Below are positions 13,101 to 19,100 of a stretch of DNA of 64,000 nt, in pieces. Below the pieces are notes generated by a model. It was not told the DNA's origin, did no database searches, and worked only from the letters and a program-made list of their open reading frames with translations. The stretch comes from Octopus vulgaris (Eukaryota). The stretch is taken from contig OX597832.1 of NCBI GenBank assembly GCA_951406725.2, forward strand, positions 44,082,001 to 44,146,000. The letters run 5' to 3'. The stretch's first letter is position 1. Every line of letters begins with the position of its first letter. A program made the translations under genes and the position numbers.

Positions 13101-16100
13101 GCGTGGCACCTTGGGCAAGTGTCTTCTACTATAGTCTCGGGCCGACCAAAGCCTTGTGAGTGGATTTGGTAGACGGAAACAGAAAGAAGCCTGTTCTATA
13201 TATATATATATATATATATACACACACACACACACACGTGTGTGTGTATGTATATGTTTGTGTGTTTGTGTTTGTTCCCCCAACATCGCTTGACAACCAA
13301 TGCTGGTGTGTTTACGTCCCCGTCTTTAAGTACTAGGCTTACAAAGAATAAGTCTTGGGGTTGATTTGCTCAACTAAAGGCAGTGCTCCAGCATGGCCGC
13401 AGTCAAGTGACTGAAACAAATAAAAGAATAATCCTTCGATGGACTGGCATCCTGTCCAGGTGGGGAATATATATACCACAGAAACCATGAAACTGGCCCT
13501 TTTGAGTCTATGTGACTTGGGTAAGGATCTTTATCCGTTATATAAAGTGGGTGGGTTAAACTTAGTTTAGTGAGAGGTGGGGAGAGAGAGAGGGGGAGCT
13601 ACCTGATGGTTGTTGGTAATTAGATTGAATAGAATCAGTACAAGCAGCGTAATGGAGAAAGAGAGGGGGATACTCTCTTTTACTTGTTTCAGTCATTTGA
13701 CTGCGGCCATGTTGGAGCACCGCCTTTAGTCGAGCAAATCGACCCCGGGACTTATTCTTTGTAAGCCCAGTACTTATTCTATCGGTCTCTTTTGCCGAAC
13801 CGCTAAGTGACGGGGACGTAAACACACCAGCATCGGTTGTCAAGCAATGCTAGGGGGACAAACACACACACATACACATATATATATATACATATATACG
13901 ACGGGCTTCTTTCAGTTTCCATCTACCAAATCCACTCACAAGGCATTGGTCGGCCCGGGGCTATAGCAGAAGACACTTGCCCAAGATGCCACGCAGTGGG
14001 ACTGAACCCGGAACCATGTGGTTGGTTAGCAAGCTACTTACCACACAGCCACTTCTGCGATAGGAGAGGAATACTGGAGAGGAGAGTAATATCTTGAAAC
14101 ACATTTCTAACTGCCTTCGGCATAGAATCATAACTGAAGCTTTTATTATATTACTGAGAAGCTTGAATTTTTTTCAAAAAATGGTTTAATGAATGGAACA
14201 AGTTCTGGTGATTTCAGTTACAGACTTGTTTCATTCAGACGAATTTCATTGATTATAAAAAATTATTATGGGGAACATTAAAGGTGCACTATGGTTTAGG
14301 TTTTTTTTTTTTTTTTTTTATACATGTATATATTTTCTTTGAATTTGTTTAGAGTCTTCTGACTCAATATTACCATTCACTATGCAAAGTAATTTCCTCT
14401 AATTCTGGCATTTACAAAAACCATTAATAAATCACAAACGTTCAGTCTGTGTTTTCATGAGCAACAATATTTTGGTATCTGCGACTTTGCGTTGCATTTG
14501 CAAAAATCATTTAGCCAATGTCAAGGCCTTAGTGCGAGATATTAAAGAACAAAAGCATGACTGTGTGGTTATAAAGTTTACTTCTCAACCATGTGTTTTT
14601 AGGTTCAATCCCACTGAGCAACACCTTGGGCAAGTATCTTCTACAATAGCTCTGGGCCAACCAATACCTTATAAGGAGATTTGGTGGACAAAAACATTAT
14701 GAAACCTGCTGTATAAGTGTACACACACTGTCACACACTTATGTGTCTATATATATATGTAGAAAAATACAAACTGGGACGCAAAACATTTAGAAGATGA
14801 TACAAAAAACACGAACGGGACATTCAAAGCCTTCAATCTTCAGTCAAGAACCAGATCATCCTCACAATTTCAGCTGATTAATCTTGAGATTGCTCCGATC
14901 TGGCCAGCCCCAAAGGAAAATCTAAGCCAAGCGCATTAGATTCCTTGGAAGAAAGCCTCGAATGTATACAAAACAAGGACGGAAAAACGGACGATGTTAC
15001 ACGAATAAGAATACGAAAATACGTAAAAACAATAATGATAACATGAATAAGAATACAAAAATATGCCAACAGAATTTGGCAGTCCTATACAGGATGATAT
15101 TACTGTTGTTATAACCCCAGGGAAACATTTTTTCCAGCTGGCTATCGAAACACAGTTTGTATCCATATAACATTTGCAAGGGAGGTCATCGCTCCCATCA
15201 CTAGCCTTTATATACATATATATATATATATATATATATATATATATATATATATATATATATAAATCCAAAGTTAGGGAATGATGTAGATAAAATCGAG
15301 GCTACATATGTTTCATAGCTAGCAGAACCCCGGAAGTAGTAATTATCCAAGCAAAGGGTAATCCGCTAGCTACTTGTCAGGCCAAAGATACCTTAATCAA
15401 AAGAAGTAAACATCATTATGAAGGGATCCCATGTTAACTTGGATTTCTATTCGCATGCACACCAACACCTGCTGCTAGCTGTAGGCTATAAAACAAGTTA
15501 TTCAGTGTATTGAACCTCAATATTGGAAAAACTTGCAACCTTCTATGTCAATAAATAATGATTGTTCCTGAAAGTTGTTTTTATACCTTCTATAGGCTGT
15601 TCAAAGCTTACACATTGATCCTTGGATCTTACCGTTACTTATTTTATATATATATATATATATATATATATATATATATATATATATAACTAATGTAGGA
15701 TAAAATGTTTTCCTAGAAAAAAATTTTATCAATGGCCAGCATATCAAAAAATACCTTTAAAGGTTAAATTTATAAATAATTTACAATATAAGGGCAAAAG
15801 AAAAATTCTAATGCCAAATATGCTGAAAAAAAGACAAAAATTGTCAATTAACCATTATAGTTTATGCGTCTCGAAACAAACTGATAGAAATTTCTAAAAA
15901 ATTCGTTATTACCGTATTGGACCAATTTTGGAGTTAATTCATAAGAATTTTCTCCTCTTCAGCGGCAAATACGCGAGATATAAGTGAAATACTTACTCAT
16001 ACCCACGGAAAAAGCAAACACCAAGTCCTGAGCAGACCTAAGTACCCCAAATATATCCAAAATAGAAAATATATATACACACACATATATATATATATAT

Positions 16101-19100
16101 ATATATATATATATATATATATATATATCAAAGTAAGCACATAAAATTTTAATTTAAGCTGCCTGATGAACGGGAACATGAAACTCTGAGTAGCAGATTT
16201 TTGTGATTTTTTGCAGTTTTAATAATAATGTGATTGATCGGAGATTTGGACAGTACTCACGTGTATGTGCACACGCACGCAGCTGTATATGCATGCACTA
16301 GTACTATGACCCGGCAACGTTGCCAGGTCATAGTGCTAGTGCATGCGTGTGCACATACATGTGAGTACTGTCCAAATCTCCGATCAATCACATACAGCTA
16401 GCTGGCATTCAATTGGCGTATGAAGTTTCGGGCATTTTGATTGGGTTTTGGATAGAAAATTCACCAAAAAGTCATTTCTATTGATTTTTTAATGGCTTTG
16501 CGGGGTGACTGGGGAAATGTAAAGATGTGCACGACCACCCTTGGACAGTTTTGATGACCATAGAACGTGTGAGCCCTCTAACTGAAAAATTGTGGATTTG
16601 TATAAAGGACACACACGCAGACATTTTGTCGTTTATATATAAAGAGATAAAGTATACATATATATAAAAAGCAAATAAGTAACAAAGATGTCCAGGTATC
16701 AGTGTCTTACGGCCGTTTCAATCAGCTCCATTCAATTGATCAATGAAAACATTACATCAATTTGAAATAAACCATTCTCCTTGGACGCAGCCAACCCTAT
16801 AGATTTCCAACATAAAGAATAAACCATTTTTTTAGTGCGACCTACATCAGTACTGGCAGCCAAAATAATTACATTGTTTTTCCTTGCTATTCCTGTGGCA
16901 GAATGAATCTAGTAAATACTTATTCTTTGTAAGCCTAGTACTTATTCTATCGGTCTCTTTTGCCGAACCGCTAAGTTACAGGGACGTAAACACACCAGCA
17001 TCGGTTGTTAAGCAATGTTGGGGGCGATAAACACACACACATAAACGTATATACACACATACATATATATATATATATATGTGTGTGTGTGTGTGTATAT
17101 AAATATATATATATACACACACACACACACACACATATATACGATGGTCTTCTTTCAGTTTCCGTCTACCAAATGCACTCACAAGGCTTTGGTTGGCCCG
17201 AGGCTATAGTAGAAGACACTTGCCGAAGGTGCCACGCAGTGGGACTGAACCCGGAACCATGTGGTTGGTAAGCAAGCTACGTATCACACAGCCACTCCTA
17301 CACCTACATATATAATGATGATGATCATTATATGTGTGTGTGTGTGTGTGTGTGTATACATGTGTTTATCCCCCACTCTCGGTTGACAACTGGTGTTAGT
17401 TTGTTTACATTCCTGTGACGTACCAGTCTGGCAAAAGACTCTAATAGAGTAGGAGGTACCACACTTAACTCAAAAATAAGTATTTGGGTTGCTTTGTTCA
17501 GCGAAACCCTTCAAGGTAGGCGTCTCAGCATGGCCACTGCCAAGTGAGTGAAACAAGCAAAAAAAATTAAAAGAGATAAAAGATGAATGTAGATCCCAAG
17601 AATAGGACTGCCAAGTTTCCATTACCAAAAAACAAATTTCCTACTGCAATTTTTTCTTAATATAGAACTTTTTTTAGAAAGGAAAAGAAATACAATCATT
17701 TGGCATATTTCTGCCAAGGCTGACTGAAAGAATAACGTTGCTGTAGAATATCAAATAGTAAAAGATTGATTTTACTTTCACATATTCTTCTCTATTTTCA
17801 TAAATACTTGTATCTTTCAATGCCACAAGATTGTATGAATGTATTAAAGCTGCCGTATCATCTCAAATATCTATCGGTAATATTAACTAAACTGGCAACA
17901 TGAGTGTTATTTATTTATTTATTTATTCTTTTTTGGGGTTTTTTTTTGGTTTTCTTAAGTTGTTTTTTTCTCCCTGCTAGTATGTGTTAGATGAATATAT
18001 TATTGAAGCATTGTTTTACAACTGGGTGCTCTTCCTGTTGCTAACCATTAGCTGAGGTTTTTTTGTTTTTTTTTTACTCTTTTACTTGTTTCAGTCATTT
18101 GACTGCGGCCATGCTGGAGCACCGCCTTTAATCGAGCAACTTGACCCCCGGGACTTATTCTTTTGTAAGAACCAGTACTTATTCTATCAGTCTCTTTTGC
18201 CAAACCGCTAAGTAACGGGGGACATAAACACACCAGCATCGGTTGTCAAGCAATGCTAGGGGGACAAACACAGACACACGCATACATATATATATACATA
18301 TATACGACAGGCTTCTTTCAGTTTCCGTCTACCAAATCCACTCACAAGGCTTTGGTCGGTCCGAGGCTATAGTAGAAGACACTTGTCTAAGGTGCCACGC
18401 AGTGGGACTGAACCCGGAACCATGTGGTTGGTAACCAAGCTACTTACCACACAGCCACTCCTGCACCTAGCTATTTTTTTTTTTTTGTTTTATTTTTCAA
18501 GTAAGGAGTCTTTTATTCCACACACCTGTTTGAAAATACATAGGAACATAACAACTGTGTAATTTACTTGTAGGTAAGCAATTTTCAGAGAAGTGCAAAT
18601 GTGAGCTAACCACACAGACATGCATGAATGCATACATACATACATACATGATGGCTGCCCCCTCGTTATCGAGTATGACCATTGCACGAAGCTTAACTGT
18701 TACTTGTGCTGTGATCGAAGGTGACTTTTTAGCCCAGCCAAAGATCTACAATGTCTTGTACAGAATTGGCAACTAAGACCTTTACCGGCAATAGCCGGCT
18801 GTAGTTGTAACTGGGCTTCATGTACCTTTGCATGTCGTTTAAGTCCTCCTGCCGAATTACACTCTCTTCCGCATACCCGACAGATATGATTAGTATATGA
18901 TGTGTTACACCACCACGAGTGGCCAGGTTGTCACTCATCTGTCTCGCTTTATGACTACGAAGATGACTCTTGAGTCCAGCTTTACTGAGGCAGGGTCTTT
19001 CACAGACATTGCATGTCAGCATCAAAGGAAGACCTTTCCCTTCTGGAAGTGTAACAGTGATGCCCTTCCTGACATCCCTCCTTACTTTCTTCATGTGCAA

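Follow-up and report, generated by a model that had tools for sequence, protein, structure and literature searches.

What kind of element built the stack of short cassettes, several of them carrying hammerhead ribozyme motifs, that lies among (TA)n runs in this Octopus vulgaris locus? We analysed the whole 64,000-nt stretch of DNA (the window), which a preliminary description had read as several miniature ribozyme families that had colonised the introns of an essential gene. The results placed the entire cassette cluster in one ~21 kb intron of the host gene ECM29 (3989-25041, plus strand), between flanking exons near 3989-4126 and 24901-25041, and not across several introns. The label "essential" was likewise unsupported, because male mice with a single ECPAS knockout stay fertile (PMC10135743), so that in mice the gene is not essential.

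The cassette coordinates given previously were correct, and the TA runs said to separate the cassettes were found at 15209-15264, 15645-15688 as (TA)22, and 16069-16128, but not between cassettes 4 and 5, where a different element of ~410 nt intervenes. Cassette 1 (14760-15208, minus strand) is a non-coding structured element with a T-rich end toward a TA run at 14748-14758. It occurs as a single copy within the window, contains no hammerhead detectable by a descriptor scan with one defect allowed, and has a predicted multi-branched fold at 14816-14965 that favours the minus strand (z -2.95 minus, -1.21 plus). Cassette 2 (15265-15644, minus strand) may be composite, because its right end bears a weak likeness, on the opposite strand, to the cassette 5 tail (a score reached by 1 of 200 shuffles); short by-eye matches between this cassette and the 5' end of Naiad_Ovul were at chance level. 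Cassette 3 (15689-16069, minus strand) represents, at full length, a non-coding family of ~380 nt that is present in high copy. Its 5' end is sharp (~16069), its 3' end is joined to TA, and its hammerhead strand has 11 runs of at least four T. The run at 16069-16128, of (TA)/(CA) composition, separates its 5' end from that of cassette 4 (16129-16227, plus strand). An unrelated repeat that has an extended terminal hairpin (16228-16645, plus strand; 93% to 7018-7374) sits as an insertion at the cassette 4 tail, and cassette 5 lies at 16665-16917 on the minus strand. A comparison of 36 stop-free stretches with Pfam gave one weak, unrelated match, and Penelope-like element (PLE) protein remnants, whether a reverse transcriptase (RT) or a GIY-YIG frame, were absent from all cassettes, the PLE profile matching only at 23.8 kb. 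Consensus patterns for pol III A and B boxes matched nowhere in cassettes 1-5, and lone telomere-like hexamers close to two tails were at chance level.

Hammerheads were sought with the descriptor scan, which tolerated one defect, using 300 shuffles of the region and 20 of the whole window as controls. The scan gave five matches in the window, three of them in the region, whereas region shuffles gave none in 296 of 300 cases, one in 4 of 300, and never more. The three type I hammerhead motifs of the region are real and above chance. Whole-window shuffles yielded 0-3 matches (n = 20), so a further match at 62109 is likely a chance one. An Rfam search, which had been proposed as a check, returned no hammerhead or other ribozyme (E up to 1 for the window, up to 10 for the region). 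This result and the whole-window shuffles are what could be said for reading the motifs as chance matches in AT-rich repeat DNA, a view to which we give negligible probability in the face of the region counts, of a 31.7 kb copy that supplies the base repairing stem II of cassette 4, and of the cassette 3 family, whose majority restores the core and covaries and for which the chance reading is refuted.

All three region motifs had been credited with a CUGANGA...GAAA core; the motifs are present, but the core is literally intact in one of three, and every copy is damaged (G8A, G12A or a stem II mismatch). In cassette 2 (15300-15383, minus strand), G8 reads A (15375), stem II carries a 59-nt insert, the 4-bp palindromic stem III has no loop, and the GUA site at 15303 lies 39 nt from TA. 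In cassette 3 (15909-15968, minus strand), G12 reads A (15929) and the site is AUA at 15915. The cassette 4 motif (16159-16196, plus strand), sense to the host pre-mRNA, has an intact core, a stem II mismatch at 16178, a 4-bp stem III with a 1-nt loop and a GUA site at 16192; in isolation it is not predicted to fold as a hammerhead (z 0.01). The NUA cleavage triplets (GUA, AUA, GUA) and the palindromic stem III, closed by a loop of 0-1 nt, were confirmed, as was the half motif of a fourth cassette, which is the 3' half in cassette 5 (16704-16719, minus strand; GUA site at 16708, ~42 nt from TA), with a 5' core half that is unrecognisable. The pattern of the cassette 4 motif had 0 matches in viral contigs, and that of cassette 3 had 0 in metagenome contigs.

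Further copies had been placed at 31720, 41550 and 56825. The first holds as a cassette 4 homologue, but only as a 3' half (31715-31769, plus strand; 80% over 54 nt, E 9e-6), with its site 38 nt from (TA)14 and with the base that restores the cassette 4 stem II. The other two, at 41551-41607 (minus strand; more than one defect) and 56825-56870 (plus strand; A in place of G12, other mismatches as well, and no TA in the vicinity), are decayed hammerhead-like motifs; neither passes the one-defect scan or is clearly homologous to the cassettes. We found an additional motif, absent from the preliminary description, at 25161-25254 (plus strand), with an intact core, a long stem II, one stem I mismatch and no TA nearby. 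The distance from site to TA was 38-42 nt in 3 of 8 motifs, with a background of 3.6% within 60 nt and a choice of motifs that carries selection bias; TA was absent within 400 nt for 2 of 8. The two intact-core motifs in sense to the host transcript (16159-16196 and 25161-25254) would fit ribozymes co-opted to cut or regulate ECM29 pre-mRNA. Both have stem defects, however, the one in cassette 4 does not fold alone in the model, and the remaining two cluster motifs are antisense and core-mutated, so that co-option appears very improbable.

Evidence at the family level came from contigs of public sequencing runs aligned to cassette 3, covering one of the five cassettes. Matching contigs numbered 2830 (run X4), 2785 (X3) and 1504 (X7), under three species labels and with the whole unit covered; contig depth is not equal to copy number. 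A fourth run, X17, contained 335 contigs, which were not counted as expression evidence because the RNA nature of that run was only guessed. The 5' end was sharp, with depth falling from 86,482 to 97.5 at 16071-16078 (X4), and at the 3' end depth persisted into TA (7,781 vs 11,790); at most 1% of the aligned family sequence continued into unlike sequence. Beyond the 5' end, most copies do not appear to run on into TA, and flanking by TA on both sides is therefore not a general feature of the family. The family majority has the type I hammerhead core: G12 was present in 99, 98 and 99% of family depth (X4, X3 and X7), though it reads A in the window copy, and N7 was the sole core position with a family-level variant of at least 20%. 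The stem II pair 10.3-11.3 was A-U or G-C (15932: 63/71/64%; 15953: 65/46/54%; X4/X3/X7), and two co-varying stem I changes preserved pairing, covariation here meaning population frequencies and not single molecules. That six variable sites avoid the core was not significant alone (about 0.25, by hand). An intron around the cassette 3 hammerhead was rejected as a candidate, its apparent acceptor AG (15824) being missing in 97-99% of depth and no skip joint fitting. On copy number, consensus core and stem covariation, the points set out beforehand, the results favoured cassette 3. The data support a TA stack made up of several distinct Penelope-associated elements with hammerheads; the further proposal of a miniature family holds for cassette 3, a self-contained, non-coding, high-copy family of ~380 nt with a conserved type I hammerhead.

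These family data bear on a broader reading in which all cassettes are 5'-truncated 3' ends (3' UTR or pLTR) of autonomous PLEs, with no miniature family. PLE hammerheads are mostly single and in truncated elements (PMC4209133), and cassettes 2, 4 and 5 and the 31.7 kb copy finish 35-42 nt past the site, as Hydra-clade 3' ends do. The shared sharp 5' end of cassette 3, the near absence of sequence running on beyond it and the lack of a PLE protein remnant in any cassette nevertheless make truncation unlikely as an account of the whole stack. Applied to cassettes 2, 4 and 5 alone, it is close to evenly balanced, and cassettes 1, 2, 4 and 5 may be truncated PLE ends.

We also considered whether cassette 3 is a dispersed monomer of a true non-LTR retrozyme, whose tandem arrays elsewhere would give a circular ~380-nt RNA reverse-transcribed by a PLE. 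The unit size fits, retrozyme families made up mostly of monomers are on record (bioRxiv 10.64898/2026.07.22.740005), and the 15 joints listed of 16 include two head-to-tail ones (16060 to 15719 and 16068 to 15716), each joint being supported by one contig at 80% likeness. One inversion joint, seen in a single contig and of ambiguous geometry, coincides exactly with the cleavage site at 15914. Two head-to-tail joints are, however, few among ~7,100 contigs (X4, X3 and X7), no tandem unit of this size was found within the window, the predicted fold is branched and not rod-like (~65% paired), and copies made from a circle would not share one sharply defined 5' end lying 155 nt away from the cut. 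This origin therefore has only a small probability. Strand changes accounted for 8 of the 15 listed joints, and 4 of these 8 put a 3' fragment in inverted orientation next to the 5' end, an arrangement described for PLE inserts (PMC8557442) and resembling the inverted truncated copy at the 5' end of Penelope-13_HM. Non-LTR retrozymes (Cervera and de la Pena 2020, PMC7229834; Li, Clavereau and Pollet 2026 preprint) share with the cassettes a non-coding unit of 150-450 nt with a type I hammerhead, a PLE dependence that is likely for the cassettes, and a frequently intronic location. They are defined by tandem repeats and circular RNA, whereas the cassettes, known from DNA, are monomers scattered in TA that seldom show a head-to-tail joint.

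The PLE reverse transcriptase fragment reported near 23.8 kb was confirmed (23871-24458, plus strand) and is of Neptune/Nematis type. In its full-length relatives, a GIY-YIG nuclease forms the C-terminal part and the RT-EN linker contains a zinc finger. For 27 relatives, 150 nt or more of sequence followed the ORF; five of these carry a hammerhead in sense orientation 95-146 nt downstream, in every case with a 2-bp stem III, and a TA run lies close by in one of the 27. Given this different hammerhead design, the fragment is not favoured as the driver, and it is not linked to the cassettes.

A closer likeness was found in Hydra-clade PLEs (Craig et al. 2021, PMC8557442), nearly all of which favour (TA)n and which have a 3'-proximal type I hammerhead and a short tail; the clade is present in Octopus bimaculoides as Hydra-1_Obim. 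Their 4-bp palindromic stem III with a 1-2 nt loop resembles the cassettes' design, and our count from the published table gave a 4-bp stem III with a 1-nt loop in 16 of 25 families and a tail of 25-42 nt in 10 of 24. Compared by eye, the Hydra-2_aMil row and the 3' half at 31720 are alike except for the loop base. Hydra-1_Obim shares a defined end without a pLTR; by eye, the sequence of its end differs from those of the cassettes. Unlike Hydra-clade PLEs, the cassettes are non-coding, 100-450 nt long and without sequence match to the published consensus ends; six short cassette motifs were found 0 of 6 times in the Craig consensus files, where line breaks can hide matches. Cassette 3 also departs from the Hydra rows in its 5-bp stem III and 227-nt tail, and cassettes 2 and 5 in their long stem II and a loop-less stem III that is absent from those rows. 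The minimal metazoan PLE hammerheads (Cervera and De la Pena 2014, PMC4209133) are also dispersed singles with several families per genome, and have opposite-strand pairs 100-700 bp apart, a palindromic helix III and predicted dimer activity, as in the cassettes. The cassettes differ in having a stem III of 4-5 bp, longer than that of the minimal motifs, and cassettes 2-4 lack the additional base that those motifs have between positions 9 and 10.1. Chlamys non-autonomous PLEs such as MRC1 (PMC8557442) are also non-coding, with head-to-tail insertions and a microsatellite bias, but they are green algal, mostly lack hammerheads and show similarity to an autonomous partner.

We consider it probable that the stack arose by independent insertions of short non-coding hammerhead elements into the TA tract of the ECM29 intron, likely copied by a TA-targeting PLE protein, most likely of the Hydra clade. 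The PLE nuclease would nick TA, and its reverse transcriptase would start near the 3' end of the element and copy the RNA; existing TA tracts would keep drawing new insertions, so that a stack builds. Cassettes 2, 4 and 5 likely represent 3' ends from further families of this sort, either miniature or truncated. In the majority version of cassette 3, stem III is predicted to form only in the dimer (-49.3 vs 2 x -19.4 kcal/mol), and dimer cleavage by hammerheads is attributed to Lunse et al. in PMC6765202. The ribozyme may be active chiefly in dimers joined by its palindromic stem III, which would leave single intronic copies silent, and CpG transitions after insertion may have damaged the window copies.

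The kind of element is already known, and a TA stack is ordinary for a PLE-rich invertebrate genome. The analysis adds abundant repeat families missed by Rfam, for which we found no description in Octopus. More tentatively, and with rather less probability than its alternatives, Octopus may hold SINE-like miniature partners of Hydra-clade PLEs that are dispersed, monomeric, TA-primed, present in thousands of copies and rarely tandem, with a hammerhead under selection and needed in cis for mobilisation, for example through an RNA dimer on a PLE protein dimer. PLE hammerheads may simply parasitise PLEs (Craig 2021, PMC8557442), and an Anolis PLE inserts in vitro without cleavage (PMC11167929). 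Cassette 3, with 380 non-coding nt and an intact, covarying hammerhead in its family, offers a compact substrate for testing whether copying needs the ribozyme; if true, a cis-required ribozyme would speak against the view of PLE hammerheads as dispensable or parasitic.

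The five short non-coding cassettes lay where the preliminary description had placed them (cassettes 1 to 5: 14760-15208, 15265-15644, 15689-16069, 16129-16227 and 16665-16917). TA spacers separated cassettes 1 to 4 as described, but cassettes 4 and 5 were divided by another element, a repeat of ~350 nt with a terminal hairpin, present in two copies (16228-16645 and 7018-7374; 93%). Its ends presumably resemble those of non-autonomous Helitron-like elements, and in the 16.2 kb copy the hairpin was lengthened outward by ~70 bp.

The window and the cassette region were scanned with a hammerhead descriptor permitting one defect. 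Five matches were found in the window, three of them in the region; region shuffles gave no match in 296/300 cases and one match in 4/300, and whole-window shuffles (n = 20) gave 0-3 each. The three hammerheads reported earlier were thus recovered in cassette 2 (15300-15383, minus strand, G8 to A), cassette 3 (15909-15968, minus strand, G12 to A) and cassette 4 (16159-16196, plus strand, mismatch in stem II), but the core was intact only in the last. Cassette 5 held a 3' half only, as described, and the scan detected no hammerhead in cassette 1. The Rfam search proposed at that stage reported no hammerhead in the window or region. Of the three sites called further copies, 31720 was a 3' half akin to cassette 4 (80% over 54 nt) carrying the base needed to restore the cassette 4 stem II, whereas the motifs at 41550 and 56825 were rejected by the one-defect scan and folded poorly. 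The relation between cassette 4 and 31720 was the only clear homology among the cassettes and motifs compared; the right end of cassette 2 weakly resembled the tail of cassette 5.

Family data were obtained for cassette 3 alone, using contigs from 4 of 24 listed sequencing runs at 80% likeness. Three runs with three species labels contributed 2830 (X4), 2785 (X3) and 1504 (X7) aligned contigs, and a run guessed to be RNA (X17) contributed 335, together covering the entire 380 nt. Summed depth, which does not equal copy number, reached 10^4-10^5 versus 4-233 for single listed contigs, which suggests thousands of copies. Depth plunged past 16070 (86,482 to 97.5 in X4) and persisted into TA at the opposite end (7,781 vs 11,790), and at most 1% extended into unlike sequence; cassette 3 is therefore self-contained, its 5' end sharply defined and its 3' end joined to TA. 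TA at the 5' end was seemingly missing from most copies, the reference including only 9 such letters. Fifteen joints were displayed (one further was hidden), each backed by one contig: 8 changed strand, and in 4 of these the 5' end was linked to a 3' fragment in inverted orientation; 2 were head-to-tail and 5 were skips. One joint, 15759/15914, switched strand exactly at the first base 3' of the predicted cut; it is a possible copy of cleaved RNA, with ambiguous geometry.

G12 was kept in 98-99% of the cassette 3 family depth, and N7 was the sole core position with family-level variation. Stem II pair 10.3-11.3 alternated between A-U and G-C; in stem I, two changes occurred together with pairing preserved, and C11.1 was U in 25-33% of the family. 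Core avoidance by variable sites alone was not significant (6 sites in 60 nt; hand-calculated at ~0.25), and the preservation of pairing is the stronger sign. The G12A lesion of cassette 3 is a CpG transition relative to the family majority, a pattern that the lesions of cassettes 2 and 4 appear to match. Three of the seven copy-specific changes in 15689-16069 (family share 90% or more) were CpG transitions, at sites altered in just 1-2% of family depth, possibly reflecting heavier methylation within the gene body. In folding, the majority hammerhead formed stem III only as a dimer (-49.3 vs 2 x -19.4 kcal/mol), with a monomer stem III pair probability of at most 0.03 in the full cassette 3 RNA. 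Dimer-dependent stem III is likewise reported for Penelope-like element (PLE) hammerheads in PMC4209133.

No PLE protein remnant was found in any of the five cassettes, nor were pol III boxes. The fragment at 23871-24458 proved to be PLE RT, as first identified. Relatives of this RT share the RT-EN linker zinc finger seen in the Neptune and Nematis clades. Among 27 such relatives at metagenome loci, 5 had a hammerhead in sense orientation beyond the ORF, and in each case stem III was 2 bp long. This design differs from that of the cassettes, so the RT is not the obvious driver. Two loci with Neptune-type PLEs had hammerheads either side of the ORF, inverted in L011 (1087, minus; 3582, plus) and direct in L012 (1028 and 4094, plus). 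In cassette 1, 14816-14965 (minus strand) gave a multi-branched fold with a 15-bp closing stem including G-U pairs (z -2.95; equally stable in 1/200 shuffles) and no Rfam match, making it a candidate structured RNA inside a TA-flanked element. Elsewhere, 50470-50570 (plus strand) was a 5S rRNA-like fragment (Rfam 50.8 bits) fused to a repeat tail common to many SINE-like copies, and reading frames resembling pieces of non-LTR retrotransposon proteins were seen by eye at 18729-19407, 44398-44760, 50844-51227 and 3075-3680.

The Hydra clade of PLEs is the best fit for the cassettes. According to PMC8557442, nearly all Hydra families target (TA)n and bear canonical hammerheads, and octopus PLEs include Hydra-1_Obim and TA-preferring Naiads; by our count from its supplement, 16/25 families combine a 4-bp stem III with a loop of 1 nt, and 10/24 end 25-42 nt past stem I (others, 58-350). 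TA lay 38-42 nt past the site in 3/8 window motifs, against a background of 3.6% within 60 nt, a comparison subject to selection bias. However, the cassette 3 tail is 227 nt, two window motifs have no TA nearby, and no cassette gave a match to a published PLE consensus, with six short motifs searched in the consensus files. The Penelope-derived part of the original proposal holds in that the cassettes seem to behave like a non-autonomous PLE derivative, but on present evidence they lack the tandem repeats that define non-LTR retrozymes. The finding is real and the element type already known; these families did not appear among the matches listed on hammerheads or Penelope in octopus or cephalopods in the openly accessible literature.

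Exon 59252-59416 was 100% identical to an Octopus vulgaris protein named ECM29-like, which maps to the plus strand throughout the window. The stack lies within a single ~21 kb ECM29 intron (flanking exons near 3989-4126 and 24901-25041). Calling this host gene essential is unsupported, because male mice with a single ECPAS knockout remain fertile, according to PMC10135743. A further hammerhead with an intact core and long stem II, missing from the earlier list, occurred at 25161-25254 (plus strand, TA not nearby), ~130 nt past an ECM29 exon and sense to the pre-mRNA.

What was observed directly is the cassette 3 family with its boundaries, the motif conserved in it and the lesions of the window copies; building on this, we propose that the protein of a TA-targeting PLE would nick TA and reverse-transcribe the element RNA, starting near its 3' end. 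According to PMC11167929, AT-rich DNA is nicked by PLE proteins, which begin RNA copying internally. Each insert would leave TA tracts alongside that draw further insertions, which may explain the stack. Because folding gave stem III of the majority hammerhead only in the dimer, lone intronic copies would be silent.
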